From a virus (Duplodnaviria; Caudoviricetes): a stretch of DNA of 64,000 nt. Shown here piece by piece: positions 8,301 to 34,100 of this stretch. Both the position numbers and the translations under genes were made by a program. Location of the stretch: positions 14,519 to 78,518 of IMG/VR virus record IMGVR_UViG_3300005805_000071; one strand, given 5' to 3'. Below the pieces are notes generated by a model. The model had not been told where the DNA came from, searched no databases, and saw only the letters and a program-made list of their open reading frames with translations. Positions within the stretch are counted from its first letter, which is position 1. Every line of letters begins with the position of its first letter.

Positions 8301-11300
8301 ACATTATCGAAAAATGCATAGAATCTTGTAGATGGTTTTAATGCCTCTGCAGTTATACCAATATTTCTACTTCTAATCCAAGGAACATTACTTCTACTAA
8401 CAACTCTATCACCTAGAGATTCTGTTCTAAATGTTGGTCTTACTCTCTGTTGTGTTCCTGTTCGCCTCTCAACAATTCCAGTTGTAGTTATTGTTCTGGT
8501 CCCCCAAACAGCAATACCACCACCACTAGCATTCCATCCTTGAGGTCTACCGTCAGATGTAGTTGTTACTGCTCCAGTCCAATCTTGTGTCCAAGAACTC
8601 CATTGTAATGGACCAAATCCATTTTCAAAGTCAAATCCACCACCCTGTTCGGCAGTTCTCTCTCCAAGACTAACAACAAGAGCACTAAAGTTTCCTTCGA
8701 TATTGGTTACTTGTGTTGGTAATCTTCTAACGGAAACCCAGTCATCACTAGCAGGACTTAAAGTTATAGCACCTAAAAATGTGAAAACATTGAACGGGTT
8801 TACGTTTTCTGTTTTTGATGCATATGGTTGTTGAATTAATAATTGATGCTCAAATGGGAGAGTCACAATTCTTCTAGATTCTCTTACATTTGACGATGCT
8901 GAAGTATTCCATGTTAAAGGAACATTTGTAGTATAGTGCGATGGTCTTAAAATTCTTTCCGCAAAATCAATTGAGGCACCATAATCAGGATTAGTAATTT
9001 CAGCAACGTTCTGATTTTCGAATGAGTCTACAAAGAATCCATTTTTAAATTTATCATTTCCAAATTCATCTGTAATGGTAAGAGATTCTGTATCACTTTC
9101 TAGTAAAGTTAGAACGCTATAATATTCGACATTTTGTAATCTTGCATCTAGACCAGCAATATCTTTCATGGTATATCTTCTGATATTTTCTTTGAAGATA
9201 TAATTATCTGTATCCACATTGAATCCATACGCATTATGGGCTATTGTGGCCAATAACATTGCACCATCTATATTACTAGGTGGTTGAGGAACTTCTGCTG
9301 GTTTTCCTAGCGTTAGTAAAAATTCTCCAGTTGTATTAACAAATAGTTTATCAATTCTAGGCAGATAAAAAGTATAATCGCATCTAAAATCGGAGTCTGG
9401 TTTTGGTATATCAAAAGTAGTAGAATCTTCAGAATCTTTAAATACTCTACTTGCAAAATCGAAACTGGAACAATTCAAAGCAAATGGATCTGAAAGAGTT
9501 CCTGTTCCGTCTGCTAGAGCAGATACCCCTGGTCTGAAATCAAGAACATCTCTAAGTGCTTTTTGTGTGGATGTTGTATTTGTTCCACTTCCAACTGCAG
9601 ATACGAATGTTGGTATTTCAGCATACTCAACACCAACATACGAATCAATATTGAAATAATCTCCAGAACTTTCGTGTGAGAAATAATCTGCAACAATTTT
9701 TACTTTTCTAATTGGAGAGGCAACTCCCTTTTTTCTAACTATTCTTGAGACATCGTAGAAGAAGTTCTTCTGACCACTTTCTAGATAGAAAGAAGAAGTT
9801 ATATTTTTACTTCCCAAGTTGATAGAACCATCAGCATCACTTAGTAGCGATTGTAGAGCATTTCCATTACTGTCAAATCCAGTTATAGTCTCATTCTGTT
9901 GGAATGGAACAGAACCTTCATAAACAATTGTCAATCTTAGTGTACCAGTATTAAAATCTACTACGTAACCCTTTGCACCAGAAGTTTGCCCAGTAACTAA
10001 AGAACCTGTTGCAAAAAAGGTTGGTTCTACTAAAGTGACATATGGCACTACAGCATCATTATTATCAACAGATTCATAAACAGCTCGTAATTTATAGACA
10101 TCAGTTACTCCAAGAGAAATATCTACATCTTCAATTCTAGTTCCGTAAATATTTGAGTATGCTAACCCATATTGTATTTGGTCACTTTGACGAAGGGTTT
10201 TATTAACCTTCCATATTCTCATTTTGTTAGCATTTTTAACCTTTTCTACAACTATATTTTTCGATATAGCAGCATTAAATCTAATTGTTGTAATACCAAC
10301 TAAGTTTGCAACCGTAATAGTAGATCTTGGAGTTCCAGTTGTATTAAATGTTGTGTAAGCAGCTCCCGATGGATTATCATTTTGTAGGATAACAACATCT
10401 CCAACCGAATATGAAGATCCACCAGATACACTTGTAACTACTAGATTGTAATTTTCAGTTTCTACTGCTTGGAACTGTTCATTTGCAGCAAGAGCGATTG
10501 TGAAACTATTACTTGTAATTTGCGATTCGTAAGTTCTCTTAACGATCATACTTTCATCGCTAATAGATCTAATCGCTGTTTTTGGCATTTCAGTAAATAA
10601 ATCTCCATCTTCCTTGCCAAATAGGAATGGTCTAAGTCTTATAACTGTATTGTATTGTGTTCCATTAGTAGGAGTAAAACCTGGAGATGGAGTTACATTG
10701 ATGGATTGATCGGCATAATTAAATACTGAGGACAAACTAAAATTAGATGCTAAAGCATCAACTCGGAAATATTCAGACTCCGATACATACAGTAAATCAC
10801 CAGATCTAACTTCTGGAGATATATTACTATTGTAACCAGTTAAAACACCACTATCGTATGTGAAGAAATCTCCACCAAGCCTAAATGAATCCGTTAAAGA
10901 AACATCGCCAGTGAAAATTACATTATTTAGATTATCTCTCCCTACAACCTGCTTAATGTCCGAAAACTGATATGAATATACTCCTTGAATGGTTCCTTTA
11001 TCTCTCCCATCAACCTCTATAACTTCACCAACTCTGAATGTACCAGTAACGCCATACAAAGATACTGTTTGTCCAGTAAAACTGGTTCCTGAAGAAAGTC
11101 TTATAAAACCATTTGCGCCACTGGTCTTTCCTCTTATTCTAGAACCACCTTCAATTGTAGTTGATTGAGTTAAATAAATTTTTGTAATGAATGAAACATC
11201 AAAAGCAGTACAATTATAGATATCATTTAAATCACCTTCTAAAGCATCTCCACTACTAGAAAATTCCCAACTTGCAACTCTAGCCAATCCAACTATATTT

Positions 11301-12607
11301 CCTGCAGAATTTCCTGGAGTGGATGTAAAGTCATCTCTAAGTTCTATAATTTGGTATGAATCATCTATATCTGGACCACTGATAACTGGTGTTCCAAAAA
11401 CATTAGTAACTTTTATTACGTTACCAAGTTCGAATGGAATAATATTATTTTCAACCGTTTCAAAAGTTCTTGGTTTTGGAAGATCTAAAAATGTTTGAGA
11501 TTGCTTGTTGATAAGATAACCTTTTAAGTATACCTTACCAGGTGATACTTGCACAGCATATAAATTATCTGAAGTTATAACTCCAGTATCATCTGTTCTT
11601 TGCCCTGGAAGATATACACCATTATTAAAACCATCATTTAAAGACTCACGAAGTTTAATATCAAATGGTTTAATCATGAAATCGCCTGCCAAATCATAAA
11701 TCTGAGATGCAAAACGCTTTTCTAGCTCATTATATCCAGTTTCATCAACTTGTAATTCAACTTTTCCATTTTTCAATCGCATCAATTCATAAAAATTCTT
11801 ATCTGCATCATCATCAAAAGTTTTTTTAACTAATGTGGCTCTAATTCTGAATCTATGAGCTCCAGGTGCAGCATAGTTAGAAGTGCCTGCTGCATTATCA
11901 TTTAGACTGGTATCATCTTCAGATGTAATAATTGATTCCGAAACTTCTAATCCAATTCTATAAGATGGATCTACTTGATATTGATCAAGAATAATACTTT
12001 GATATGGAACATCAACAAAGAATCCTCTAATAAAGTAAACACCAGTATTAACGTAAGCTATAGAACCAGTTTGATTTGCTTCGTTTGGAATGAGTTGAGC
12101 TACTGGTGTTCCAATTTCAATCAGATTAGAACCATATGTAATTTCCGAATCTACAACGATCTGCTCGTTGTTAAGTAACTTAGTAACGGTTCGATCAGAT
12201 CCACCAGCTTCCTTGTATTTAACGTAAAGTGTTATAAATCCTTTCTCTGATTCATCTGAAGATAAGGTTTTAATTACCTCTGCTCTAACACCGCTAGTAA
12301 CGCCAGTAATAGTTTTTCCAACTAATTCTTTTCTATAATTTTCTACTTGAGAACCTAAAAATGATGATTGGATTAGGACACTATCCGCATTATTATCCCA
12401 TGCAACTTGACCTGGAATAACCATGGAACCATCTTTAAATAGATGATTACCAACACTTTCAACCTGATTCTGTAAGATTGACTGTAAAGTTGTTAGTTCT
12501 CTAGCTTGGATTGGAAATCCTGGTCTAAAAAGAACTCTATAAAAGTTCTTAAATTTATCAAAATCATCATAATAAGGGCTGACGTTAAGGTTGGTGTTTT
12601 GTGCCAT
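5312..12607 (-). CDS. Large virion structural protein, DUF4815 / VrlC-like
   Basis: 2431 aa. N-terminus TNLNVSPYYDDFD...FRPGFPIQARELTTLQSILQNQ and RRYTMKDIAGLDARLQNVEYY...FKNGFFVDSF are typical of this family. Lies directly after gp8. Confidence 0.85.
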   Translation of the reverse strand: MAQNTNLNVSPYYDDFDKFKNFYRVLFRPGFPIQARELTTLQSILQNQVESVGNHLFKDGSMVIPGQVAWDNNADSVLIQSSFLGSQVENYRKELVGKTITGVTSGVRAEVIKTLSSDESEKGFITLYVKYKEAGGSDRTVTKLLNNEQIVVDSEITYGSNLIEIGTPVAQLIPNEANQTGSIAYVNTGVYFIRGFFVDVPYQSIILDQYQVDPSYRIGLEVSESIITSEDDTSLNDNAAGTSNYAAPGAHRFRIRATLVKKTFDDDADKNFYELMRLKNGKVELQVDETGYNELEKRFASQIYDLAGDFMIKPFDIKLRESLNDGFNNGVYLPGQRTDDTGVITSDNLYAVQVSPGKVYLKGYLINKQSQTFLDLPKPRTFETVENNIIPFELGNVIKVTNVFGTPVISGPDIDDSYQIIELRDDFTSTPGNSAGNIVGLARVASWEFSSSGDALEGDLNDIYNCTAFDVSFITKIYLTQSTTIEGGSRIRGKTSGANGFIRLSSGTSFTGQTVSLYGVTGTFRVGEVIEVDGRDKGTIQGVYSYQFSDIKQVVGRDNLNNVIFTGDVSLTDSFRLGGDFFTYDSGVLTGYNSNISPEVRSGDLLYVSESEYFRVDALASNFSLSSVFNYADQSINVTPSPGFTPTNGTQYNTVIRLRPFLFGKEDGDLFTEMPKTAIRSISDESMIVKRTYESQITSNSFTIALAANEQFQAVETENYNLVVTSVSGGSSYSVGDVVILQNDNPSGAAYTTFNTTGTPRSTITVANLVGITTIRFNAAISKNIVVEKVKNANKMRIWKVNKTLRQSDQIQYGLAYSNIYGTRIEDVDISLGVTDVYKLRAVYESVDNNDAVVPYVTLVEPTFFATGSLVTGQTSGAKGYVVDFNTGTLRLTIVYEGSVPFQQNETITGFDSNGNALQSLLSDADGSINLGSKNITSSFYLESGQKNFFYDVSRIVRKKGVASPIRKVKIVADYFSHESSGDYFNIDSYVGVEYAEIPTFVSAVGSGTNTTSTQKALRDVLDFRPGVSALADGTGTLSDPFALNCSSFDFASRVFKDSEDSTTFDIPKPDSDFRCDYTFYLPRIDKLFVNTTGEFLLTLGKPAEVPQPPSNIDGAMLLATIAHNAYGFNVDTDNYIFKENIRRYTMKDIAGLDARLQNVEYYSVLTLLESDTESLTITDEFGNDKFKNGFFVDSFENQNVAEITNPDYGASIDFAERILRPSHYTTNVPLTWNTSASSNVRESRRIVTLPFEHQLLIQQPYASKTENVNPFNVFTFLGAITLSPASDDWVSVRRLPTQVTNIEGNFSALVVSLGERTAEQGGGFDFENGFGPLQWSSWTQDWTGAVTTTSDGRPQGWNASGGGIAVWGTRTITTTGIVERRTGTQQRVRPTFRTESLGDRVVSRSNVPWIRSRNIGITAEALKPSTRFYAFFDNVDATSYCFPKLIEVIKDSTENSNSNNIPFQVGEVVQIIETSSTGTNTIIFRAEVARLNDGYRYDPYASSGATLTGELTELSDVYSSNTPYLNIDVTTLSGLEDAEYYGNIQINYVVEGLSSGARAVIRDRRLITDPSGNFKGIFFIPDENVDSNPRWATGRRIFKLTTSSTNETLSIGDTTSSSGQVEYAATGILQEEQEQQLSIRDGVIEDVVIPSESQNVPARTTTESTIVGWYDPLAQSFIVQERGGCYISKVDVYFATKDERIPVRCEIRRMESGIPTKFIQPNSQIVLQPEEVEISENASIPTSFIFDCPVYVSDLEEYCVVLLSDSNKYTVWISEFGEVDITGDRTISEQPYAGVLFKSQNGSTWTPNQLQDLKFEIYRAEFGPLNGTLVLNNASLGLQNGGVRILRENPIQTKQATQTLVLNDNTGSFTVGARIYQQTTNASATIQQFIESTNPHQLVIENVDGTFLQGSNIGGLISYPIISSQTTGSIRVDSPTGSYTIGSTVTGGTSGATAIVTGWSLDGGGTYGTLSVNYVSKDFDDGETISQTNPSISGTVDETNTTYSGDTYQKYLSLSPTYSALSKRVTVFHRNHGMHDPTNTVEIRDVVSEVSPTTLRASISNTDLSITVSDALAFHTVINGLPISESNPGYMKINGEIISYTAIGNDGTVITIPSSGRGLDGTVAAAHQEGSFVECYNLDGIPLTEINKVHEGVYNVSLDTYDLQCESVSTSGIVAGGSQVRATQNIPFEYIHPQVQKVEHASTPILARINTVSGTSINNGNTTEASFVNSGEYIEVDLNQTNYLSGQKLILSGRNEQEKLAGQKSFTMQLLMSSSTSLLTPIVDLDRCSIITTSSRINNPDNWQLSEQFIGDPHDAVYITRMVSLDNQVSRSIHVYFDAYRPPESDFKVLYRIVPPGFSGDENTISWEFFNETGGPDALVTPSNRVQFKSYVYSVSGIEFSKYQIKIVMTSTNQAYVPQIKYFRAIATAI

Positions 12608-12626
12608 TTTTTTATTTCTCTTCTAA

Positions 12627-14159
12627 TTAGAATTCAATAACAATTTTGATATCTTCGATCTGATCATTTGCACGAGAGATCGGTCTTCTATTATCTATAT
12701 AGATTACTTCCCCAGTGTTTTTGGAAATTTCTGGGAATGCGTAACCTGCTGTAAATCTCATACCTAAGTCATATTCAGTATTATTAATTATTCTAGTTGA
12801 TTGACCTGGAGTAACTGGAAAGTTAACATCTGGTTCAGCTGAAGCTCCAGATGTATCTCCAATAATAATATTACTACCCTCAAATAAATTTAGAGATCCA
12901 ATAATTTCTGGGTAAATACCATCAACATTATTCTGATAGTACTTTAAAACTTTTGTTACTGAGTTCCATGAAATCACTCTTCCCCTAGAAGTAATTTGTT
13001 GACCTCCAACGGTTCTTGTTTGAGTAATAATTTCATCGACAACAAAATTTCCTTGGAAAGTCGGAGGAAAAATAACTGCTTTTGTAGCACTCAAAGTTAA
13101 ATCATCTGCTAATTCTTCGGTATTGTACTTATATGGATTTAATACCATTCCAATTCTTCGATAATCATTATCGATAGGGAAATCACCAGAACCCTCAGAA
13201 TACGAAAGTCTGGCATTTACCATTACTCTAAAACCACCTAATTCATAAATTGGATCAAATCCATGTCCACCTTGGGGAGGAATAATAATATCAACAACAC
13301 CACCAGTTCCAGTTCCAATTCCATTAATGGATTCTACATTTATTCTTCCAAAAGTATATCCAATACCACCAGAAGTAACAGTGGCATTAACAATTCTACC
13401 ACCGTCTACAATGACAGATACTCTTCCACCAACTCCATCACCAACAATAGGAACATTTTCATATGTTCCATTGTTATACCCACTACCAGATGAAGTAATA
13501 ACTACTGTATCAATTTCTCCAGATACAGCATTAGTTTTTACAGCAGAATCAGTTAATACTGGAATATAATCAGATGAGAAAAATTTTAAAACCTGAGCAA
13601 CAGGAATGGTATACATGAATTTCCATCTATACCCATCTGAGGTGGTAATAATTGATGTGGATGTTCCAGTAGGTTCGATTGTCGATGGTTTACCGTTAGG
13701 ATCGGATGGGGAAGTTCCATTATAAATGCACTTATATACCTGATACGTTGAATTCACAACATAAAAGTCTGATTCATATAAACGAGTAGATCCAGAAGCA
13801 GCTGTTTTTGTTGAAGAATAGTCATGACGATACATATCGTAAATATATCCCAAACCACCTGTAGTTTGTTCTGGTGGAATCCAGTCAATACGACGAACTA
13901 CTTGAATAGTATCATTTGCCAAAACTCTTTTTAGAGAAATCATGTCATCATATAGATCACTATATTCCTCAAAACTATCTTTTGGTGAGGGGGGATTATT
14001 TTCATTCTCCCAAGTTTGAGGGCGACCAATAAAGATGTATAATCTATCTCTATTAGAACCAGTCTCAAGATCACTTAAAGTTGAATCTGGTCCTTCGAGA
14101 GATTTTATAAATTTTCCAGCCGAATAAATTCGGAACTGATCGGTTAGAAGTGCTGTCAT
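12627..14159 (-). CDS. gp8: Baseplate wedge subunit gp8
   Basis: 510 aa. YIFIGRPQTWENENNPPSP, YDMYRHDYS, VYKCIYNG, DGYRWKFMYTIP and IYIDNRRPISR...IEDIKIVIEF are T4 gp8-family motifs. Confidence 0.9.
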   Translation of the reverse strand: MTALLTDQFRIYSAGKFIKSLEGPDSTLSDLETGSNRDRLYIFIGRPQTWENENNPPSPKDSFEEYSDLYDDMISLKRVLANDTIQVVRRIDWIPPEQTTGGLGYIYDMYRHDYSSTKTAASGSTRLYESDFYVVNSTYQVYKCIYNGTSPSDPNGKPSTIEPTGTSTSIITTSDGYRWKFMYTIPVAQVLKFFSSDYIPVLTDSAVKTNAVSGEIDTVVITSSGSGYNNGTYENVPIVGDGVGGRVSVIVDGGRIVNATVTSGGIGYTFGRINVESINGIGTGTGGVVDIIIPPQGGHGFDPIYELGGFRVMVNARLSYSEGSGDFPIDNDYRRIGMVLNPYKYNTEELADDLTLSATKAVIFPPTFQGNFVVDEIITQTRTVGGQQITSRGRVISWNSVTKVLKYYQNNVDGIYPEIIGSLNLFEGSNIIIGDTSGASAEPDVNFPVTPGQSTRIINNTEYDLGMRFTAGYAFPEISKNTGEVIYIDNRRPISRANDQIEDIKIVIEF

Positions 14160-18004: not shown

Positions 18005-19108
18005 TTAGAGTTCCAACTGAAGTAAAGTTAAAGTTACCTCAACAGTACCAGTAGAACCAGATAAATTTTTAACTTTTAAATATATGGTTCCAGATGGTAC
18101 ATTATCATTATTAAATCCTAAAGTTCCTGGTGTTAGCAATACAGTTTGATTTCCATTAGTTATAACTTCAGCAATAACTCCAGAACCAGGATACGGATCA
18201 GTAGTTTCACTCCTAGATGCATCATTAGTTCTAGAAGTTTGATCTGTATATACTGTTACCCAAGCAGCTCTATTAGTAGAAATTTTCATCAACAAATATG
18301 ATTTAAATCCTGTAACATCGATATTCTGACTAGCGTTATTTGCTAGTGATGAAGAAGTTGCAGAAATAGTTCCTCTAGATGGTGCGAGTGTGGTTGGTTT
18401 ATTTGAAAGATCATCGTAACTTAACTGACCATTAACAAAATTACTGCCATTGTATTTAAGAACTTGACCTGAAGATGGTGCAGTAACAACTACATCATCT
18501 AATTCATCTAAAGTTAATGCACCTGTCTCCAAATTTGGTAAATTGCTTAAATCATTATAATCACCAGAAAAAGCAACATCAGAAAACGGTGCAGGACTAA
18601 GTGCAGTTGGTTTATTCGTTAGATCATTCCAACTTCCAGAAAACAAAGATGGTTTAAATAAAAGATCGGTGTAACTTCCAGATGTGGCAACAGTAGATAA
18701 AACTGGACGATTTGTTAGATCATTATAATTACCAGTTATAGAAACAGTTGATAATGTTGGTTTATCTATCAAATCGTCATAGGCACCAGAAAATAATGCT
18801 GGTTTATTTAAGATATAAGACGGTCCTGATGTTGCTGCCCAGTCAGATTGAACTTGTGCAGCTGGAATGGTCGGTAAATTTGATAGATCATTATAACTTA
18901 ACTTTGCACTAACAAACTGAGAACCATTGGATCTTAGTACATTTCCAGATATTACACTGTTAATGTCTATAGACAAATTAATACCATCTTCACCCAAAGA
19001 ATTATATAGTTCATTTATAGAACTATTAATTTTTTGGGCACCAGATCTAATACTATCACCAGTGCCATCATTAGCTTGTGAACCAACATTAATTAGCTGT
19101 TTTGCCAT
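18005..19108 (-). CDS. gp9-like baseplate/fibre connector with internal repeats
   Basis: 367 aa. N-terminal KQLINVGSQANDGTGDSIRSGAQKIN..INELY is the gp9/gp10-type anchor. About 7 SGxYxDLxNKP repeats. Confidence 0.7.
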   Translation of the reverse strand: MAKQLINVGSQANDGTGDSIRSGAQKINSSINELYNSLGEDGINLSIDINSVISGNVLRSNGSQFVSAKLSYNDLSNLPTIPAAQVQSDWAATSGPSYILNKPALFSGAYDDLIDKPTLSTVSITGNYNDLTNRPVLSTVATSGSYTDLLFKPSLFSGSWNDLTNKPTALSPAPFSDVAFSGDYNDLSNLPNLETGALTLDELDDVVVTAPSSGQVLKYNGSNFVNGQLSYDDLSNKPTTLAPSRGTISATSSSLANNASQNIDVTGFKSYLLMKISTNRAAWVTVYTDQTSRTNDASRSETTDPYPGSGVIAEVITNGNQTVLLTPGTLGFNNDNVPSGTIYLKVKNLSGSTGTVEVTLTLLQLEL

Positions 19109-19145: not shown

Positions 19146-22100
19146 TTATACCTGATCAAATGTCACAGCATTAGTATCCCAAGAAGCCTCATTATCATCA
19201 AATTTAAACTCAAATCCTTCTGGAGGTGGTGGAACATCATATACTATATCAACAGTAGGATATGCATAACCAGATCCCCTGTTATTTACAACAACTCTAG
19301 AAACACCTACCTGTGCTCTTGCTTGAGCATCAAATCCAGTTAAAGAGTTGAAGGATATGATTGGTTCTGATGTATATCCTTCACCACCAGAAGTTAACTG
19401 AATATTTTTAATTCTTCCATTAATAATTTCAGTTAAAGCTTCAGCACCATTTCCTAAAACACTTCCAAGATAATCAAAAGTTATTAATGAATTCGAAGAT
19501 TCGATAACCGCAACAGTTCTATCTTCAAGTTCCCCTTCTATACGTAATTTATCTCCAATTTCAACTGGAGGAATTACATCTACAGAAATAACATCAGTAT
19601 CAGAACCAATATAAGAGAATGCAACAAAAGTAGAACCAGCTCTGGGAACCTCAGCAAAAATAACTCTAGAACCAACAAGTTCAAATGCAACACCAGGTTC
19701 CTGAATAACTCCATTTAAGGATATAATAATATTATTTTCTGGTCTAATTGTTGATGATTGAACTCCATCGGTAAGTGTTAGTGAATAGAAAGAATCATTC
19801 AACTTCAAGTTGAAAGTACTTCTAAGTGAATCAAATTGGAATCCAATATCATCTAACTGGCGTAATTTTCCTAGATATACTGCACTAAACAATGATCCAA
19901 TTGTAGGTGGTTCTGAGAATTGAACAGTATCACCAAATATAGTATAACTGGATCCAGGTGGTTGTAAAACACCATTTAAGAATAGTAATAAATGACCGTC
20001 TTCTGGTGGGAAATAAGGATCGCCATTATTTTCAGTTAACGCAAAAGTATCTTGTATTCCATTAAATCCAACAAAAGATCTAGAAACTCTACCAGCAACT
20101 TCGACTACGTTTGTAACCGCTGCTCTATAGTTATATGAAGCAATAACCTGAGAATATGGGGAAAGATTGCCAACAACATTTCCTAGATATAGTCGATATC
20201 CTAATCCAATTTGAGATATCTTAGTTATTGTTGCATATGATTCTGTTGCAGTAATTAATACATTACTTATAGTACCACTTCCAGATGGGAAAACTTCACC
20301 GTCGTCAAAATAGGAAACTACGTTACCAGTAACAAAATCATCTTCTGTAAAATTAGCAACATAGATATATGCTTGAGAGTCATTATTAATAAGTTCTACA
20401 TTTAGAATTTTTGCGGAACTTGTTGTAGGAATAAGACCATTCACTTTAAATAATGTAGATCCAATTGGGAATTTTGAACCAACCTGAGCATTTATATCAA
20501 CCGTTAGCCTTACTGTTCTTGTTGTTCTAATAATATCATTTATACCAACAAGAGTTCCTTGAGGATCAACAATATCAATATAATGAGAAGTATTATTTGA
20601 ATATACTAATCTAGAAGGTAAAAACTCTCCTTGCAATGCTTCAGTCTCTAGAGTTAATTTGGAACCAGTATTCGATAAAATTGGACATACATTATAATCA
20701 AAATTATTTGAAGTGAGATCAGCACCAGAATATAATCCACTGATATATTCATCAGATCCAAACGATCCTATAACATTTACTAGTTGAACTCTATTTGTAA
20801 TTGATGTAATTGTAGCTAAGTAACCATTATCATCTATTAGTGTGTGACCTACCGAGAACTGTCCAGAAGTCATAGACACATCGATATAGCTAACAAATTC
20901 TCCGTTTTCAGTTGATACTATAGTACCAGTGGTTCCAGGGAAACCCTGTCTAGTTACACTTGTATTATGTGAGAATACTTCATCAGGATCATTATATTGT
21001 ATTTCTAATCTACGAAGAATATTTTTAACATATCCCCTATTATTAATTATAGATTCAACTTCAGCAAATTCACCGCTAGTAGATCCATAGATATAATCTC
21101 CAACAGATAAAGATCCTTTAATTGGTGTAAATGGTTCTCTTGAAGGATATGATTTTTGTGGGACAGATAAAGAATTTACACCAATAATTTGATTTATCTC
21201 TATATAAGAGGAATTATTCAATGTACCTAATAAAATAGACATATTATCAGTAATGAAATTCTGGATTTCTGTCAAATTCGATCCAGTGATACTAATATTT
21301 GGATCTGTATATGCGTATTGTCCAGAAGCCGTTGCTGGAGAAGTTAGAGTTTCCGCAACTGCAAGTTTCATATAATCCAATACTCTATTATATGCATATA
21401 TACTTTGAACTAACTCTCCCTCCAAAGATACAATCGTTCCAGTTGTAGCATCGATATAGGATAACGTAGCATTCAGTATACCAGTATTGCCGTTAGTAAG
21501 TAAATCATACACAATAGCATCAATAATATATCCCATATCACGTAAACATTTTGCATTTCCACCAGGAATACTAAAACTTGGATATTGGTTTAATGTTCTT
21601 TGAAGTGATTCGTACTTAATATATTCTTTATTAAATAGGAGCAGTTTAGCTGCATCTCTGTATAGTTTATTTGCATTGCTTTCCGACTGTCTAGTAACAT
21701 GATTCATGTTACCATTGGTTACAGCAGTAGTTAATATTGAGAATAGTGTGGTAATTGATGATGCTACGTTAGCGCAAGTTGGATTGCTCGGATCCACCTC
21801 AATCGTATTATCAATGACTTGAGTAAGAGATGAATAACCACCAATAGTAATGGATTGATTACGCATAGCTTCAATTGCCATGTCTCTTGCTTGATTGAAA
21901 GCATAATTCGATTGAATTTGTTCTCCAGAGAGATATGAATTAATTGTATATACTTGAGAATAATCGAAGGTACGAGCATTACCACCATTTCTCAAATCAT
22001 AGATTATAGCATCTAAAATATCTACAATATCATCAATACAATTTTGATTACCATTAGGAATTGTAAATGCTGGATATGCATTTAACATTCTACCAACAGC

Positions 22101-25100
22101 AACTTCAGCAATTAATTGTTTGTTAGATTCAATTAAGTTTGATGCATCATAATATCTTCCGAAGAACGAATTTCTTTCTGGTATGAGAATACCAATACCA
22201 ATATTGAATAATGTATCTATAGTTGCCTTTATTCTTTCGCAATTTCCACCATAAGTTCCATCATCAGCAGGGATAGTTAAGTCTTTATATTTTGGTGCAG
22301 TCGCGCCATAAGTGGTAGCATATTCCGAAGATGTTGTACCGCTAATAATCCAGTTATCAACTGCATACTGAGAAAGTTCATTAACCTTTTCAAATGCTAT
22401 TACAGTTTGTAGAAGTTCATCTTTTACATATTCTATTTCTGCATTTCCGATATAGAATTCCATAGCACTAATAATATTATCATTACCACCTGTTAACATG
22501 TCTGCAATTATAGAAGGGATAATATAATCAGTTATATCTCTTTCACATTTAGATGAGTTTCCATTTGGATATGTTAATGCAGTATAATTAACTCCATTCA
22601 ACTGATATGTGAAGTAATTTTCAATATAACCTGTTGCTTCTTGTGCAATAAAATTACGATTAAACCATAATTGATTAGCAGCATCTATATAAGCTTGATC
22701 TACTGGCGACAGTATAGTATTAATAAGAGTCCATAGGGAATCTATTGCGGACCTAACATCTGCACAAGCACCAGGATCTACAATAACATCATAAGGAGGA
22801 ACTGGTAATATATCTGAATATAATGGTGTATCACTTAAATTACCTATAACTGCATCCTGACATAACTCACTCATCTGAGTATGAGCATAGAGACTTTGTA
22901 GAATCTGTAGTTTTATAAATCTCAAACCACCATTAGAATCTAGATAGAATCTTGCTGCAGTTGTGGTATTATAATTACCACCCACTTCAATATCTTCTGC
23001 TACAGCATCCAATAGTAATGATAAATCTAATTTACAACGATTAGTTCCTTCAATATTACCTCCCTCATCTCCAGGAATAATCAGATCTGGATATCTAGAT
23101 TTCATTCTACCAGCAGCTTCTTCAACAATATGAGCAGCATTTAATCTAATTAAATTTGCAGCGTCTCTAAATCTATGTCTATTATCGAGGTCTATTTGAC
23201 CAGTGATAATTTTCTTATTGTTTGTCTGTATTTGATTAACAGTGAACGGAACAGTTAAATACTGTGATGTTACAGCGGATACTGATCCAGAAGTTATTGT
23301 TTCACCCAAATTGAAATCACCAGATTGATTTCCTAAGAAAAGTGTTTTAAGTGCATAATTTATTCCAATAATCTCTGCTGTTTCCCCTGAATCTGAACCA
23401 GTTATAATATCTCCCTGGAAGAAATTACCTCCAGAAAGAGTGTGATATGTTAATCTCTTGGATACAATAATTTCACCAGAAGTAAAATCATCACTTTCAT
23501 TAATATAATTAACATATAAACTCTGCAATAAATCATTTGCAATTACATTAGTTCCTGTATTATAATTAAAATCTAAAACTATATTAGTAATATCTTCAAA
23601 AGGAACGAAGTTTATTTCATATTTCTGCTCATCATCTTCGATATTTACTACTTCAACAACACTATTACCAATATCATCCAAAATTGTATTTGGTCTATCT
23701 GGAATAATTTCTCTAGAGAATATCAATCCTGTAAAAGTGCTAGGATCACTAATAGAAATTGACGAAATTGGTTGTTCTGTTGAAGGATCTAAATATGGTG
23801 AAAGTGTTGTAATTCGTGCAAAAACTCCTGTTCTTGCACTTAAAATATAGTCACCTATATCTAAATCTAATACGCCTGATGGATTTAGATAAGTTCCTGA
23901 AGTTTTACTAATTGTAATCTCATTTGTAACAATATTATTTGTCGTATTAAGATTAATTTCTTCAACAACAGCAGTATCTTTAGTTGTGTTAGTTATTACT
24001 TCTTCAAATTGATAAATGTTATCAACGTTGAAGGTCTCTTGAGATACTAGGATTGCATTCATTCCTGTTGCAGTTGAGATGATAACCTCACCATTCTCAA
24101 ATCCATCTCCAGTTATATTATATACTCTTAGTGATCCTGATGTTGATTGAACAATGTTGGCTGTAGTATTAGTAGTAATACCTCTAATTGATCCACCAAA
24201 TTCAGGTAAAATTCCAGATAGGTTTGAAATATTAAGAATTTGAGTAGGAACAAATTGCAGTGTCAGTTTAGCATAGCTAATTTTTGTTGGAGCAGCTGGA
24301 GGTTCAGTGAAAATTATATTTCCCTGCTGTACTACGAACGAAGATCCTGGAGGTTGTATAACACCATTAATAGTGATTAAGAACTGACTACTATCTGCAA
24401 TAACAGGTTCTCCTAGAATTGTTAGTGGAAAAGCTGTTCGTTCTCCATCAAAGAGATTGGAAATATCATCTAGTCTTTGTACGACAGATGTTAAAATTTC
24501 TTCAGATGTAGTTAATTTTTTGTTTCTAAATAAAACTTGAGTGTTATCAAAATCAGAGTATACTGGCTCAACAATAGCATAGTCTTGAATTGTTGAAACA
24601 ACAGAACTTTCAATTAAATTAACGCTCTTTGTTAATTCAAATTCAGTTTTATTCGTTATTCCTTTCTTATTCTCTACAAGATCAATTTCACCAAAAACTT
24701 TAAAACCAGCAGGATGCACGTTTTCAATTAAAGTTTCTCTCCATAGTTCAATTGGAACTGGTGATTTTATATTGTATGAGAAGTTTTGATATAGGTATGA
24801 ATCTTGTATTTTTTGTACAATTTCTCCAAGTTTTCCTACATCCGAAGTAAATTTACCTGCAGTTGTGGTTGTTGAATCTACCTCAAGAACTCCCTTTGCA
24901 TTACTAATACTATCAATTATTCCACTGGCTTTTGAAATTAAACCAGTTACAGGTTGACCAACTGTAAATACACCATCTATATTTACAATTTTAAGAAGTC
25001 TTGGTCCAATTTGCCACCCATCATTAGTAGATACATATGCAGTTGCAGTTGCATTTTCATAAGTTTCACCTTGATAAATCAATTCACCTGATAAAAATCT

Positions 25101-28100
25101 TCCAACTTCAACAATAGATTCTGCCGCTCCACCAAAAGAGTCGGTAAGAATAATCTGTCTTCCTGTACCAGCATTTACAAAAGAAATATAATTACCACTA
25201 ATAGCATCTTGGGGTGTTAATGCGACTCTTAGTTGCTCATCTTCAAGACCATTTTCTAGTCCAGTAATAGCATAATAAGTTTGATTTGGATTTATATAAC
25301 CAAAAGAAGTAAGAGGGAACTGAGTTCCTTCACCAACATCTTGATTTGTAAATGTTATTTCAGATCCACTCACAATTCCATGTGGGAATGAGAACTGGAA
25401 TAAACCCAAATCAATGTTAACAACGTAAGTAAATGCAGACTTCAATGAAATAGTTGGAGCTGTAGAATAACCAGATCCAGTTTCTTTAACAATAATAGAG
25501 CTAAGTCTACCATTTCTAATTTCTGCTATAGCTGTAGCGCCAGATCCGCCGCCACCTTCAATTACTACTTCTGGTGCAGTAGTGTAACCAGTACCAGGAT
25601 TAGTAATCTTAATACCACTAATTACGCTAGTACTTGTTAATTGTAAGTTAAGAGGGAATGTGATTTCTGGTCTTAATGTATAGTCATGGGTGTAATTAAA
25701 TCCATAATTATTATTCTTTAAATTCTTAATTTTTCCAACTTGAGTACCCTTAGTGAATATAGATGCTCCAGAACCAAATGGGGGAATTTCAACTTCTAAA
25801 ACAGCACCAGAACCACTTAAAAGTGGACCAAGAATACCATCAATAGCATCAACATCAATATAAGCTTGTGTGTACCCTTTTCCTGGATCTGTAATGGTTA
25901 CTTCAACAATTTGACCAGCTGGATCTGTAGTTCCATCAACCAAGATTGAAACTTTTCCACCATTACCATCACCCAAGATAGGAATACCAAAGTATTGTCC
26001 AGCTGCATATTCGCTACCAGGTTCTATGATATTGACTCTTTCAATCTTTCTACTTGATTCAATTCCAGAAACAACAGGAAGTTTTTTATAAAATCCTCCT
26101 CCACTAATTAATTTTATAGACGAGATAGGTCCAGAGTCTTTCAGTGATTCTGTCGAATATGAAGATGATGCCGTAGTAGCGTTCTTTTCTGGCTCGTATG
26201 CCAAATTAAATTTAAATACATTTGGACCTTGAGTAATAGATCCACCATCTAAATCTGTAACTACAAATTTACCAATATAAGGACTTAATTGAATGTCTAG
26301 ATATGAATCGTTAGTAACTGGTCCATCAGCAGTTAGATTGGATGGATCAGCATAGTAAGTAATATTAGAAACATCATCCGTAATCTTAAACGAAATATAA
26401 GGAGATGCTCCAGGTTGATCAAATCCAGGAGTACCACGTCTAACAATATTTTTGAAAGTATATTCAATCTTATACAAATTATCTCTATAGAAAGATAGAT
26501 AATGTCCCTGCATCGAAGGATCAGCTGTATCAAATGTATATTGCTGTCCGTAAATAAATCTAAATACTGGAGTTTTAACGTAAACTGATACAGTTTGAGC
26601 ACTTGTAATATTTGATACTGGAATATCTCTCAATTCCAGGATAAATTCCTTTTTGGATATAACACTATGTACATCAAAAGTTCCATTTAGAGGTTCATAA
26701 TTTACTGGAGATACTTGACAATATACTATATCACGAGTTTTTAAATAATGACTAGTTGCAGTTCTAACAAATATTAAATCGGTGTTATTTTTAGTATCGA
26801 TCTGTAATACCTTAGTTAAATTTGTGATAATACTTATTTTAGTTACTGCGGTAAGATTTGTGATCGTAGCTTCTTTTCTATCACTAGTAAAAGAAATATC
26901 ATTACTGCTAATTGTTACAATTGATCCAACAACGTAAGATGATCCCTGAAGAACTTCATCAATTCTAATCAAATAGTCATTATCAGAATAATCTTTAAAA
27001 ATTCCAAAAATTTCATTAGGAATTTCAATATCAAAAGTTCCTGGTGTTGTATTATTTACTTCTGCAAAAACATATCCTTGAATTTCATTTACAAAATTAT
27101 CTGAACTTTGTAAATAACCAGTTGTCTCTGAGAATGACCCAGTTGCATCTCCAACTATTAGGTCATTATTTTCTAAATCTTTATCAATAATTCTTGCAGT
27201 AGCAATAATAGCACCAAGATTATTTCTTTGATATAGAGTTGTTCCAACATTAAAATCAAATCCTTGATTCAAAGTTAATCTAAGAACATTATCAGTTTTT
27301 TCTGTCTGGAAATGTTTAAAGAAGAATTTATCAAAAGTTTTAGCACGAACCTTAACCTTACTTCCTCCAACTGTAGGAATCGTTGCCGTTCTGACTGACC
27401 ATTTATCAAGTCTAACTGTTGGGATAGCATAATCTTGCGCTAATCCAGAAATAGCATTATTAAAATCTAAAATCTGCAAACCTTCTGGTGCTAGAGTATA
27501 TGTTGATGATGAAATAATAACATCTTGCTCAGCAGCATTAGGAGTATACAATGATCTAGTGATTGCTATATCATTTGTAGTTAAGTTAATAGTACCTAAT
27601 CTATCTGCATCAGCATTTTTATCCGTCTTAAATGAAAGACCAGATGGATTTCCGTAATCTGCTTTTAAATATCCTTCTGTTGGTACTCCAATAGTAGGAT
27701 ATGAACTATACCTAATATCATCAATCTTCATTGGCCAAGATTGATATGCTGTTGTTGATCCAAACTCAATCGTAGATGGACTTACATTTACGTTTTCTGA
27801 AATTGTTGCAGATAGAGTATCATTCCAATATAGTTTATATGTACTTACTCCTGAATTATATTCTTTTGTTACCTTTAAATGTACCCAATCAGTAGTTAAA
27901 TCGGTAATATGTGTAGATGTTGATGAAATCTGTGATACTGTAGCACCATCATTACTTAAACGAATTTTACCATATGTAGATGGTGAAGAAGTGTCAGCAA
28001 ATACAACAACTCGTACTCCATTTACACCATCAGTAGCTCTTATTAATACTGGAGTTTTTGCAGTTGCAGTATTATCCCACTTAATCCATTCTTCAATTGT

Positions 28101-31100
28101 CCAATCATTAGAAGTATTTGTTAACGATCCTGCCGTTAACTTTGCATTTTGAGTTACTTCATAAGATCCTGTTCCATACTTAGTATCTACACTGATATTT
28201 ACAGTTCCGCTGCTTGTTAAATCTAGTGATCTTTCTGTAATATCTTCATATGCGTTTTCTGCATTGAATAAGAATTGGGTTCTATTATCATATACAGTTC
28301 CCAATATAATGGGATCTCCAGAAACATCTGATATACAAGCAGATGTTTCAAAACCTTTTACTAAAGATGAAATCTTGGTTGATTTTAAAACTTTTCCATC
28401 ATACCTAAATTTAAACACACCAACTTGCTTAGTACCATCTAAATTGTTATTAATCGTGTATGAAACATTGACATCACCAAAAATGTCGATGGAACACTTA
28501 CCACAAGAAATGTCTACCGCTGGAGCAATTGTATTAAAACGATTTTTTACGATAGATCCGTCATTTGCAAGTCTAAAAAACTGTACAATATTTTTTACAT
28601 TTGTTATCGTATTTTTTACTGCAGATGTGATATATAATTCATCATTTTCATCAATAACAGACGATATATTATTGAATGAATAATTTGTTATACTAAACTC
28701 CTTAGTCCATTCAACTAATAATCTATTAGATGAGAGATATAATTTAGATACTAAAATATTATTTACATTTGAATTACCAACTATAAAAATATTACCATTA
28801 GAGTCAACATTTATAGAATGTATTTTTTCTTCTAAAGATAATGAGGTTAGTTTTCTCTTGGTGATTAAATCTCCAGAGCTATTCATGTATAGTAATATAC
28901 CATCATTAATACTGGTAGTATTTGTATTAGTATACCCAGTAACAATAATATTTTCATTTAAACATACAACGTCAGTAGCGTAATCTGCTCTAGTTATTCC
29001 ACTAATACCTGCAAACTCTCTTTGCCATGAGAGAGAAACTGTAGAACCTGTGGTATTTTCAGTATATCTAGCAATTATAATATCAGGGTTAAATACTGAA
29101 TTTAAGTTGCCATTTGGTTTAGTTATTCCTACGACATAGATTTTATTATCTTTTTTCTTTACAGATACCAACTCACAGTAATTATTTGGTGTTCCAGGTT
29201 GCGTAGAAGATAGTGATTTTGTCCAAACTACTGTTCCGTCTGAAGATAATTTTTGTAAGAATCCATGGTAGTTTCCATCAGGTAATTTTACTTTACCAAC
29301 AACAATAGCGGTCTTGTCATCAGAAACAATACCATTAAGAATAGTAACCTCACCGTTAGTTGTATTGTGAGAAGTGTAATAGTAATCAGCTTTCTTCTTT
29401 GTTTGTGGGTGTGATACTCTAACAATTGGATCTGTTAAGTAACCATCACCAGAATTTATAATGTCAAAATTTTCAATGACACCATTAGAAGAAACTACAG
29501 GAGTAATTTTTCCATACTCGCCAGTTGGAGATTCGATATTAACAGTAGGAATTTCATCAGATAAGTATCCAGTTCCAACTTGAGTTACTTCAACTCTCTC
29601 AATTCCTCTGATTGACTTAACGAGAATTGTTTTTGAAGTTGGTTCCATTTCTGGAACAGTATTTAATGTTACAATATCACCTACAATTAGATTATGAGGT
29701 TCTGATGTTGCAACTCTACCTTTGAATACATCTTCTTGATTATCATATTCATATGTATATGATGTTATCTGCTTTCCTTTAATTGAAGAAATTCTTGCAG
29801 AAGCACCGTAACCAGCTGTACCCTCATTATCAAATACTAATCTATCACCAACCTGATAATCATCTCCTTCATTTTCAATTAAGAATCCACTAATTTTAGC
29901 ATCTTCAAATTTAGTAGTTGTGTTAACTTCAATATCTACTTTTGATGAAATATTAATTTTTGGGAAGTAATCAAATACTTCTAATCTATCCTCTTCAAAA
30001 ATGACATCAGGATCATCTATTTCACTCTGATCAATTATACCATCTTTATTTTCATCTTCAATATCAAAGGTTAGAAAATCTCCATTTTCTAATGTTAAAG
30101 CATTTGTAGATTCATTTGGTTGTCTTTCAACATCAATGTCAACATTTTCAAAGGGAGTTCTATAACGAACAACACCAGTAGGTATATTTGATTGTGTAGC
30201 AAATTGATTTAAGTTCCATAATTCTGGACTTGAATTAAACTCTGGACCTAAAACATATGGGAACTTGGATTGACCAGCAGCATCTATAGTAACAAAATAA
30301 GCATATGTTCCATTTGGATACTCTGGTGTTTTTGTAAATCTTCCATTATATTCATCTAGATAAACTGAAAGACTATTGAATGTATATTCATAATCTTCAA
30401 TGAAAGTTCCAGCTGGATATTCTGATAGATCTGGACCTTCAATTCTAGATGGAACAGGATTGGTGTTTTGATCGAAAACTAGATTTGTTTTTAAAACGTA
30501 ACTACTTTGAATAGGTACTATACTGCTGGATAAATTTGTAGGATCACTTAGTCCATAAGGTCCGTATATGGGATTTCCATCAAAAGCCCATCCTAAGATT
30601 GGTGAATGGAGTACGGATTCTCTCTCAATCAATTCACCATTAACAATATCGATATTATCTCCAAGAACATATCTTAATTGTTTTGGATTTGAGATATGTG
30701 CGTATTCTCCACCAAACTGGTTATTAAAACCTTCAAAGATAGATCCATTTGCATAGTCAAATGTAGTAGTTTGATTTAAATTAAAAGTCCATTCGAAAAT
30801 TTCAGACTCAAACTCGGCAAGTTCTCCAACAGATTCTAATCTAATTTGAGTTGTTCCTTGAACATATCCAATACCACGATTTACAATTTCTATACTAATA
30901 ACTCTTCCTGAATCTACTCCTTCAGTTGAAATGATAGCTCTAGCTACAGCACCATATCCATTTCCAGTTATAATTACCTTTGGCGCAGTAGTATAACCAG
31001 TACCAGCAGCAATAATAGCAATAGAAATAATTCTACCATTACTTACATATGCCTGTGCAGCTGCCCCTTGACCACTACTAATTGACACTTTTGGTGGAGA

Positions 31101-34100
31101 TGTGTAGCTTGTTCCTGGATTTGTAACTACAACTTCTTTAATTGGACCTCTAACAACTGCTCTTGCTTCAGCACCAACACCACCTCCACCAGTAATAGTT
31201 ACTATAGGTTCGGATGTATATCCAGATCCAGGAGTATTTAATAGAATATTTGTTAATCTTCCATTAGTGACCACAGCAGTTCCAGCTGCACCAATACCAT
31301 CAGATCCATAAATTGAAACCAAAGGTGCATCGGTATAACCACTACCTCCATTTAATACTTCAAATCCAATAACGGATCCATCCACCACTACTTCTGCAGA
31401 TGCATTTTGTCCACCACCTCCAGAAATAGTTAAAATAGGAGGAACAGATGCATCATAATCTTTTCCAGAATTGGTGATATTTACAGATGTTACTGGACCA
31501 TATGGTAGTGTTTTGGTTGATTTGTAACTCCAAATAGAAATACCATTAACAAAACTTCCAATAGGACCTGGTTTTATAACAGTTTTTAGTGATATTGTAT
31601 TTGGTATTCTTGGGAATTTGTATAACTTTCTTTGGTTTCCAGGTAACAATGCTGTACCTGGGAAAGGACCAATTTTATAGTTTGGAATTCCAGATGCAGC
31701 AACATAGACATCAGTATCATTCAAGAATGTATTTTGAATATTTGAGGGGTATTTGCTAATAGTATTATTGATAGTATCATTATCACTCTTTCCTGTATTC
31801 AGGTCAATTGATATTAGAATATTTCCTTGAGGATCTGCAACTGCAGGTTGAGGTATTTCATATTTAAATACTGTATCACTTTCTCTTGCTGTTACCAAGA
31901 AAGATCCATTATATACAATAGGATTTGCTCCATATACAGTGAATTTATCTCCAACCAATAGACCATGAGGAGTATCAGTTGTCACTGATACTGTTCTATT
32001 GTTAAGACCACCAAAGGTCATATCTTCTACTTTAAGTAGTTTTTTGACATTATATAACCAACTAGTAACAAGTTCGGATGTGTCATCAGTACCTAATTTG
32101 GAAATTGAAAGTTTATCTCCCTCTAAGTAGTAGTTACCATCATCAATGAGAATCGTTTTATTTGCATCAATAATGCCTAGTATTGACAAGATAACTTCAT
32201 TAGAAGTCCCCTTATTCAAATAAACATAAACGTTAGAAACGACTTCTGTTCCAGCATCCCACTTTGTTGGTTCAGTACCATACAGTCCTCTAGTACACTC
32301 AATAAATTGAGTTAAAGTTTTTTCCTTATATCTAATAATTTCTGATCCAATAATCACCTCACCATTTCTGTCTGGCCAACCAATTGTAGAGTCAACATTA
32401 ACTATCAAATCTTCAGGATCTACTCTTTCAATTAATTTTGTGCTGTATGGAATAACAAATTTACCAACAACACTTTCTTCAGATAAAATTAATTCATATA
32501 CATCATAAAACGCTGTCTGAATAGCTGTATAATTTTCTACTAATGCACTTGCATATGAAACGTTTGTATCAATAGGATCATCCAACTGCTCCATTAAGGA
32601 GTCTTTAATATTATTAGGATCACCAGATATTAATTTTGCTCTCAATACAGTGTCTACAGACCAAGTTGACGCTGATGGTTTAATAATTTGATCTTTAGGA
32701 TATGTTACCGAAACCGATTCACCATATAGTAATTTAAACAAATATTTTACTGAATTTACTGTTCCCTTTGATGCATAAAAATCCTTAATAGTACTCAATA
32801 CATTAGAAATGTTTAGTGTATTTGTATCTAATGATGGTAATCCTGGTAAATATTGCTCACAAATTCTATCAACAATTTTCTTAAGAAAAACGCTATCGAT
32901 ACTAATTACTGAAGCATTTGCTTTATGTACAGTTGGTATAGATTCAGACTCTTTTTTAAATACAACATCATTTATATCATATCTTAATAAACCGCTAACT
33001 CCTCTGCTGCAATTAACAAATTCAGATTTGATATATCTTTCCCCATGATTGATCAGTTCAAAACCAGTTATCTGATCTTCACCAATTTCAGCAGATACTT
33101 TAGCTCCTACTGTTGGTGAAATATAAACCTTTGGTGGAAACTGTCTTGAATATCCACTACCAAAATCGGTGATATTGATATCAATAATTTCACCATTAAA
33201 TATTGCTGCGACTGCTTTTGCTCCAGTTCCACCAATGAAATTTCCTAGATTATCTTTTCTTTCATCAACAATGTAAATACTTGGTACATCATTATATCCA
33301 AATCCACTATCTAATAGTTCAATATTAATTACTCTTCCAAAATCATCTACTTCAACATCTAATATTTGTGCCCCTGTTGGCTGTACAACTTTTACTCTAG
33401 GCGGATTTAGATATGAATATCCTCTTCCAGGAGCTAAAATATTTACCGCAACTAAAACTCCATCATCGTTAAGAACTCCCTCTGCTACAGCTTGAATGCC
33501 ATTTGAATCTTCTGGTAAATCGATATAAATGTGTGGAGCAACGGTATAACCAAATCCACCAGAAATTACTTCAATACTTACTAGAGAGTCTCCATCCACA
33601 ACTGGATTACCAACTTCCGCTCCATATGGATTTACGATTTGAACCCTAGGAACAAAATCATAACCAGATCCGCTACTAGTCAGATTAATAGATTGTATTG
33701 AACCATCAGTATTTACTGTAACTTCTGCGGTTGCTTGTTTACCTTCTGGATTAGTTGGCGAATTAATTACAACAGAAGGAGGATTTGTTTGTGAATATCC
33801 ATATCCACCATCCAATAATGTTAGTTTGGTTATCCCTCCAACTAAAGCTGTAGCCGTTGCATTGATACCTGAACCACCAACTATAGTTACCTGTGGAGTA
33901 TTTTCAATCTTATATCCACTACCACCAACTCTAGGAACGATTTTTTCAATTCTTCCTTGATTGTCAACAACACTAAAAGACTCTGCTCCAGATCCGACCG
34001 AAACTAAATTTGCATTGATGTATCCTACATATATACTTTCTCTTGGAGCAACTTTAAAGATTATATTATTTTGATAAATGCTATAATCTATTGATGGCAT

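Follow-up and report, generated by a model that had tools for sequence, protein, structure and literature searches.

The window analysed here is a 64,000-nucleotide stretch (positions 14,519 to 78,518) of IMGVR_UViG_3300005805_000071, a 78.5-kb IMG/VR virus record (Duplodnaviria; Caudoviricetes) that was judged to be 44% complete. Its minus strand encodes a giant open reading frame (ORF) of 5247 amino acids (aa) in the gp7 position of a T4-type baseplate gene module, and aa 3904–4575, in the C-terminal third of this protein, consist of four tandem domains of 163–180 aa (R1 to R4), which are predicted to adopt the phycobiliprotein (PBP) fold. The domains keep Cys residues equivalent to those that carry bilins at positions 84 and 155 of phycocyanin beta (82 and 153 in some numberings). 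The giant ORF, its domains, and their Cys codons are as follows.

19146–34889, minus strand: giant ORF, 5247 aa, gp7-position baseplate or virion structural protein (ORF list and translation)
22692–23180, minus strand: domain R1, aa 3904–4066, motif C-K-L-D (hmmsearch; PF00502 at 22.2 bits, at the cut-off)
22158–22691, minus strand: domain R2, aa 4067–4244, motif C-E-R-D (AlphaFold2 model and Foldseek; no Pfam match on its own)
21666–22157, minus strand: domain R3, aa 4245–4408, motif C-I-D-D (AlphaFold2 model, VIA-align, and Foldseek; PF00502 at 15.1 bits)
21165–21665, minus strand: domain R4, aa 4409–4575, motif C-L-R-D as in phycocyanin beta, without a second Cys (PF00502 at 27.0 bits)
23034–23036 (R1, Cys 3952), 22545–22547 (R2), 22038–22040 (R3), and 21546–21548 (R4), minus strand: Cys-84 equivalents (codon check)
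22764–22766 (R1, Cys 4042), 22239–22241 (R2), and 21774–21776 (R3), minus strand: equivalents of the beta-153/155 Cys (codon check)
22860–22862, minus strand: extra Cys 4010 in R1, at a third, variable Cys position that is occupied in 16% of copies family-wide

The domain limits from the local hmmsearch were aa 3904–4066, 4065–4244, 4243–4408, and 4409–4575, and the repeats start at aa 3906, 4067, 4245, and 4409, corresponding to window positions 23174, 22691, 22157, and 21665. An earlier note on this DNA had listed four repeats with these starts and seven Cys codons, all of which were exact on the codon check; it was also right that the fourth repeat has no second Cys, and it had omitted Cys 4010 of R1. 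The four domains share 24–33% mutual identity with 18 invariant columns, and Tandem Repeats Finder detected no remaining DNA-level repeat across R1–R4, which have diverged too far. Successive repeats are joined by loops of only about 12 residues. The Cys and Asp of a C-x-x-D motif are present in all four repeats. The giant protein contains 19 Cys in all, eight of them within the 672-aa array. R2 carries an insert (around T-Y-Q-L-N-G-V-N-Y-T, aa ~4100–4112, window 22500–22580) in the loop that leads into the Cys-bearing helix; the insert is a predicted beta-hairpin and is missing from R1, R3, and R4.

The relationship to PBPs was supported by profile searches and by structure prediction. The Pfam family PF00502 matched the four-repeat array with an E-value of 1.8e-16 and 60.9 bits (curated cut-off, 22.2 bits). 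Among the single repeats, R4 scored 27.0 bits and R1 22.2 bits, R3 remained below the cut-off at 15.1 bits, and R2 gave no match. The R4 match covered positions 33–138 of the 155 in the profile, and phmmer aligned R4 with phycocyanin alpha. When a profile of the four repeats was searched against 177,635 PDB sequences, only phycobiliproteins were retrieved (135 at E<1, best E-value of 1.1e-5), and phycobiliproteins were again the only PDB matches when the profile was built from 50 copies, taken from this window and from related loci in IMG/VR. Comparison by hhalign with 146 cyanobacterial phycocyanin alpha and beta subunits gave a probability of 97.2% and an E-value of 2.8e-11 over 126 columns, pairing query positions 11–162 with beta-subunit residues 36–172. 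In this alignment, the first Cys of the repeats was matched with the A-C-L-R-D Cys (beta-82/84), the equivalent of Asp-87 followed three residues on, and the second Cys was matched with that of "GDC" in the beta subunit (beta-153/155). The first Cys was also aligned on the C-x-R-D Cys of PDB phycocyanins in the sequence alignments.

Structure models were obtained for two of the four repeats, R2 and R3. The AlphaFold2 model of R3, built from a 50-row alignment, had a predicted local distance difference test score (pLDDT) of 86.3 and a predicted template modelling score (pTM) of 0.85, and every top Foldseek match to it was a PBP beta subunit (template modelling score, TM, 0.60–0.70). In a VIA-align comparison with 48,161 chains, the first match to R3 was phycoerythrin beta (5aqd_M; Z 16.0, root-mean-square deviation (rmsd) 3.0 Å over 150 residues, chain residues 23–184), and the top eight matches were all PBPs or ApcE. 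Far-red allophycocyanin, ApcE, and other PBPs scored Z 12–14, and heme globin sensors and RsbR-type globins scored Z 11 or below. The R2 model (pLDDT 82.8, pTM 0.82) also gave only PBP beta subunits as top Foldseek matches, including 5aqd_M with an E-value of 2.9e-3 and TM of 0.54–0.57. Based on these sequence and model comparisons, the assignment of the repeats as genuine PBP-fold (globin-like) domains homologous to PBPs can be considered solid. The earlier note had described the repeats as phycobiliprotein-like and had proposed such profile and structure searches; the PF00502, hhalign, Foldseek, and VIA-align results bear out that description, and hhalign placed the two Cys residues at beta-84 and beta-155 as the note had suggested. 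Alpha and beta sequence profiles did not separate the copies (alpha scored higher for 194 and beta for 141), and the case for a "beta-type" origin comes only from the structural best matches and the second Cys.

Conservation of the attachment site was evaluated mainly in a set of 853 full-length copies, drawn from 256 proteins and with about 25–30% pairwise identity. The Cys-84 equivalent was kept in 96.5% of the copies, the Asp-87 equivalent in 98.6%, the Arg-86 equivalent in 75%, and the Cys-155 equivalent in 40.7%; in a closer set of 336 copies, the second Cys was present in 76%. One jumbo-phage protein with 34 copies showed C-x-x-D in 34/34 and C-x-R-D in 29/34. Within these proteins, Cys accounted for 1.04% of residues inside the domains versus 0.35% outside.

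The earlier note had considered a Cys–Cys disulfide equally possible. Disulfides could form inside one domain or link adjacent domains like a staple, and would stabilise the virion after its release. By eye, the window fits such a staple, as the last domain (R4) has no second Cys and the first domain (R1) has an extra one, and the second Cys occurred without the first in only one of the 336 copies. The pattern did not hold in the family. The Cys-84 equivalent was the sole Cys in 380 of the 853 copies (45%), the second Cys was not depleted in the last domain of an array (43% versus 39% in the others, p = 0.28), and the third Cys was not enriched in the first domain (16% versus 16%). Phycocyanin positions 84 and 155 also lie roughly 30 Å apart in the PBP fold. 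The disulfide explanation fails because of the lone Cys residues, the lack of an array-position effect, and this distance; the inter-domain staple was rejected, and we consider disulfides of either kind very improbable.

Two phages have lost the site and retained the domain. The P-SSM4 copies keep the Cys-84 equivalent in 0/3, the Asp in 1/3, and the second Cys in 0/3, and the P-RSM4 domains show similar losses, with the second Cys in 0/3. These phages are natural variants without the putative pigment site in which cpeT is still present. As the domain persists in both without the Cys and mostly without the Asp, the site is not needed for folding; it is nevertheless conserved elsewhere and therefore should serve a function such as ligand binding. 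A site that is independent of the fold, usually kept, and occasionally lost would be the pattern expected of a ligand site, and the known ligand of this fold is bilin.

We infer that the domains may bind bilins covalently at the conserved Cys, and we hold this as the likeliest reading, though with somewhat less than an even chance of being correct. The domains would be chromophorylated inside the infected cell, where the invariant Cys of C-x-R-D would form a thioether with a bilin made by the host or the phage. Attachment could be autocatalytic, as in ApcE, or could be mediated by a host S-type lyase. As in phycobiliproteins, the pyrrole nitrogens and a propionate of the bilin would be bound by the Asp and Arg, and released virions would then have bilins at the periphery of their baseplates. 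More speculatively, the pigment could make the baseplate and fibre apparatus light-responsive and might lie behind the light-dependent adsorption of some cyanomyoviruses. Alongside this, the domain has a structural spacer function that is independent of pigment, given that it persisted in some lineages in which the Cys and Asp were lost.

In its gene neighbourhood, the giant ORF is flanked by gp6-like and gp9-like genes according to the PHROG matches of its neighbours, with further wedge subunits downstream beyond the gp9-like gene. The neighbouring features and one further domain of the giant protein are as follows.

18005–19108, minus strand: gp9-like baseplate wedge or tail-fibre connector, directly downstream of the giant ORF (phrog_677, E 7.5e-21)
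30279–30722, minus strand: YHYH domain of the giant protein, aa 1390–1537 (Pfam PF14240, 93.8 bits)
34926–36884, minus strand: gp6-like baseplate wedge subunit, directly upstream of the giant ORF (phrog_219, E 2.7e-185)
36884–37300, minus strand: gp25-like baseplate wedge subunit (phrog_261, E 6.4e-48)

Homologues of the giant ORF are annotated as "baseplate wedge subunit/initiator", "virion structural protein", or T4-GC 969, and among isolates, they occur in S-CREM1 (63% identity in the repeat region), S-H38, and S-SM1 (SSM1_102). The gene order is shared by S-SM1, where gp9 follows the giant gene SSM1_102. The giant ORF is thus part of a T4-type baseplate gene module in the gp7 position, and the flanking genes and homologue annotations agree with the gp7-like baseplate protein named in the earlier note. 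The Baseplate_wedge family PF23786 matched the window protein weakly (16.7 bits, below the cut-off of 27) and is a precomputed match in many of its homologues. A weak laminin-G-like match was found besides the YHYH domain.

Other parts of the module were also noted. The N-terminal third of the giant ORF (33700–33900 and 31200–31700) contains many short G-G-x-G-Y units, for example V-x-x-G-G-S-G-Y, which suggest from their sequence a second, beta-rich repeat type in the giant protein. A second giant ORF of 2431 aa (5312–12607, minus strand) belongs to the same baseplate/fibre module and matches phrog_358, of unknown function, from end to end. Upstream of the gp25-like gene are a PAAR-motif-like protein of 176 aa (37828–38358, minus strand; phrog_281) and, adjoining it, a baseplate wedge-like protein of 1294 aa (38358–42242, minus strand; phrog_719).

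The distribution of the module was determined by tblastn and by an exhaustive HMMER search. By tblastn, the module was found in 361 phage records, all of Synechococcus or Prochlorococcus phages, which bears out the mention in the earlier note of similar repeats in other cyanophage proteins. For comparison, the neighbouring gp6-like gene was found in about 459 cyanomyovirus records and in >1100 other T4-like records, and none of these >1100 non-cyanophage T4-like records carried the module. Searches with the cyanophage version and with the jumbo-phage version both retrieved cyanophage records only and no isolated non-cyanophage carrier. Among 1.84 billion cluster representatives, HMMER identified 1363 proteins at E ≤ 1e-3 and 445 at E ≤ 1e-30; these were mostly 1–7 thousand aa long with 3–34 copies, and the range for the family is 1–34 copies per protein. 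Three of the cluster proteins were scanned and showed no Pfam family above the cut-off except PF00502. In isolates, the module was also found in a second giant protein, the "short tail fiber" (T4-GC 734) of S-PM2, Syn1, S-RSM4, and others. Five jumbo-phage records encode giant proteins with 8–34 tandem PBP-like domains, and the 34-copy proteins lie on uncultured IMG/VR contigs of about 120–183 kb judged to be 33–52% complete. One jumbo-record fragment was binned with a Synechococcaceae metagenome-assembled genome and another with Actinobacteria. In two proteins (P0038, aa 685–1354 and 1658–1750; P0042, aa 4187–4453), tandem units of about 43 aa match only the first helix (profile positions 2–37) and precede the full domains. 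No publication describing these domains was found, although PF00502 is already marked in such proteins by precomputed Pfam annotation.

The earlier note had proposed that bilin reductases and T-type lyases (CpeT-like) encoded by cyanomyoviruses serve the domains, and the co-occurrence check it suggested was run. Among 22 complete genomes, CpeT (PF06206) and the module were both present in 14, the module only in three, CpeT only in none, and neither in five (Fisher p ~0.002). The five double negatives (P-SSM2, S-SSM7, S-SM2, P-TIM68, and S-CRM01) formed one well-supported clade on the gp23 tree. The entries for Syn9 and Syn19 in this tree came from truncated or incorrect ORFs and fell on a long branch, without effect on the double-negative clade. 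Because the association comes from one clade, it amounts to one or two independent contrasts (sign test, p = 1) and has no statistical weight. The second Cys did not follow CpeT in individual genomes: it was kept in S-ShM2 (4/4) and S-SKS1 (1/1), in which no CpeT was hit, and was missing from the CpeT-bearing P-SSM4 (0/3) and P-RSM4 (0/3). CpeT as a dedicated lyase for the second Cys was rejected on both grounds, the co-occurrence having collapsed to one clade and the Cys counts contradicting it. Bilin reductases did not track the module either, as P-SSM2 has a reductase without the domain, and S-PM2 and Syn9 have domains without a reductase; the proposal that phage reductases supply the pigment was not sustained. 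Neither CpeT nor CpeS was found in the record to which the window belongs, which is uninformative for a 78.5-kb fragment at 44% completeness.

Gene context still gives one hint. In S-PM2, Syn1, and S-RSM4, the giant gene for the PBP-like "short tail fibre" is preceded at a distance of 0.7–1.5 kb by cpeT on the same strand. In S-PM2 and Syn1, a 2OG-Fe(II) oxygenase gene (T4-GC 104) lies between these two genes, and a hypothetical gene (T4-GC 730) precedes cpeT; gp12 follows the T4-GC 734 giant gene in S-PM2 (160500–178500), Syn1, and S-RSM4. This adjacency may be a single inherited arrangement because the three phages form one clade. In the S-PM2 RefSeq record (NC_006820), 16 tRNA features, all with the locus tag S-PM2t009, are placed inside the 3779-aa "short tail fiber" coding sequence (8057–12884 of the 160500–178500 stretch), which looks like an annotation coordinate error.

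Several observations weigh against bilin binding by the domains. The Arg that is kept in 75% of copies family-wide is present in only two of the four window repeats (R2 and R4). About two-thirds of the 336 copies have 4–6 residues from the conserved Pro to the Cys, versus 12 in phycocyanin beta; R1 of the window keeps the PBP-like spacing of 12 residues. The deleted segment of about seven residues includes Arg77 and Arg78 of phycocyanin beta, which bind the bilin propionates. The N-terminal helix X, through which alpha and beta subunits pair in genuine PBPs, has no counterpart in the repeats, as the structural alignment begins at PBP residue 23 and the sequence alignments at residues 36–38. 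Arrays of up to 34 copies look like a length-setting structural repeat. The jumbo records have gp23-type capsid proteins that most closely resemble those of jumbo phages infecting heterotrophs (66–73% identity; Phosso, Vibrio 2.275.O, PA5oct, CBB, and GAP32), and none of the five jumbo-phage records, of which 33–52% was recovered, contained psbA, CpeT, bilin reductase, or heme oxygenase; CpeS was absent from the two records searched for it. The second-Cys losses in P-SSM4 and P-RSM4 and the reductase distribution in P-SSM2, S-PM2, and Syn9 belong on the same side, and we know of no report of a coloured or fluorescent cyanophage preparation.

Many of these observations are shared by the explanation that the domain is an apo structural module, a PBP fold co-opted purely as a compact, all-helical bead by which the length and geometry of baseplate and fibre proteins are set, with the Cys and Asp used for local packing or helix capping. 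The copy number of 1–34 per protein and the occurrence in different virion proteins, namely the giants in the gp7 position and those annotated as "short tail fibre", are in line with such a bead, as are the segment missing before the Cys in most copies, the absent X helix, the domains of P-SSM4 and P-RSM4 without the Cys, and the lack of bilin genes in what was recovered of the jumbo-phage genomes. The explanation does not account for the retention, in 853 copies, of the bilin-binding residues of the parent family (Cys in 96.5% and Asp in 98.6%) together with the Arg in 75%, nor for why a particle exposed to oxygen and sunlight in the water would retain a lone thiol. Residues needed for folding, moreover, could not have been lost by P-SSM4. 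We regard the apo module as a credible explanation to which we would assign a substantial minority chance.

The conserved pair could also have another ligand, with the Cys and Asp binding a metal shared between fibre chains or forming a covalent cross-link to another virion protein or the host surface. The two residues are one helical turn apart (i, i+3) and both nearly invariant, and phage fibres often hold axial metal ions, as in gp12 and gp37 of T4. The combination of the fold and the C-x-R-D motif, however, is that of a bilin site; the Arg kept in 75% of copies has no obvious role in metal binding, and a fibre-like trimer signature was not found. Such a ligand is therefore doubtful, and we give it little credence.

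If the domains bind bilins, a connection with light-dependent adsorption can be considered. P-HM1 and P-HM2 fail to adsorb without light, and P-SSM2 adsorbs in the dark (Liu et al. 2019, PMC6628666). The adsorption of S-PM2 is described as light dependent yet photosynthesis independent in the statement of that article that cites Jia et al. 2010 (PMC6628666). In the profile search, six PBP-like domains were found in P-HM1, six in P-HM2, 11 in S-PM2, and none in P-SSM2, and the presence or absence of the domain thus matches the adsorption phenotype in four phages. We treat this anecdotal match as a lead and not as evidence; it comprises about three independent phages and follows phylogeny. The bilin-bearing domains of the baseplate and short fibre might act as the phage's own photoreceptor, gating their conformation so that adsorption proceeds only in light. 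We consider this unlikely at present. If it were true, virus particles would themselves be light sensors, and the light-dependent but photosynthesis-independent adsorption of S-PM2, P-HM1, and P-HM2 would be accounted for.

Phycobiliproteins are free antenna subunits of cyanobacteria and algae, to which a few bacterial relatives have recently been added. Here, the PBP fold recurs in tandem as a component of virus particles with its attachment motif intact, in 361 phage records and in 1363 protein clusters; the PBP family itself was already known, and the concatenation of its domains into virion proteins is new. If bilins are bound, it would become testable why the adsorption of some cyanomyoviruses needs light regardless of host photosynthesis. 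It would also become testable why cyanophages carry bilin-related genes, the role of which has been called "unresolved" (PMC3037559). If no bilins are bound, the domains would still clearly exemplify the conversion of a host antenna protein into a structural repeat of the virion. In addition, the family would offer hundreds of natural, diverged PBP scaffolds.

The window protein can be compared with T4 gp7, which it resembles in lying between gp6 and gp8/gp9-type genes and in having homologues annotated as baseplate proteins. It differs in being five times longer and in matching PF23786 only below the threshold. To our knowledge, T4 gp7 has no globin-like domain.

The closest known proteins are the PBP beta subunits (CpcB, CpeB, and the beta subunits of cryptophyte phycoerythrin and phycocyanin). 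The window repeats share with them the globin-like PBP fold (Z 16.0), the motifs D-A-x-N, N-x-x-x-I, P-G-G-N, C-x-R-D, and G-G, the Cys at beta-82/84 (4/4 repeats) and beta-153/155 (3/4 repeats), and a long loop ahead of the last helix. Identity to the phage domains is only about 18–22%, and most phage copies carry the deletion of about seven residues before the Cys. The beta subunits are free proteins of 172 aa, whereas the window domains are concatenated in a virion protein of 5247 aa. PBP subunits, of about 160–185 aa, also assemble into an (alpha-beta)3 antenna disc, whereas no alpha partner or trimer is expected for the phage domains.

ApcE, the core-membrane linker (LCM), provides a second likeness, as it contains a PBP-fold domain within a large multi-domain protein (R3 versus ApcE, Z 13.8, rmsd 2.0 Å, 117 residues). 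It differs in that its single PBP domain precedes linker REP domains and in that it works inside the phycobilisome. ApcE attaches its bilin without a lyase, at a Cys in a different position, and this lyase-free loading would be a precedent for autocatalytic loading of the phage domains. A bacterial fluorescent protein (8u0f) was among both the sequence matches and the fold matches of the phage repeats. PBP relatives outside the cyanobacterial antennae have been described as bilin biosynthesis-associated globins (BBAGs) in an article that is silent on phage structural proteins (PMC10151467). BBAGs are free cellular proteins encoded beside bilin-synthesis genes, whereas the domains described here are repeats within a protein of the virion.

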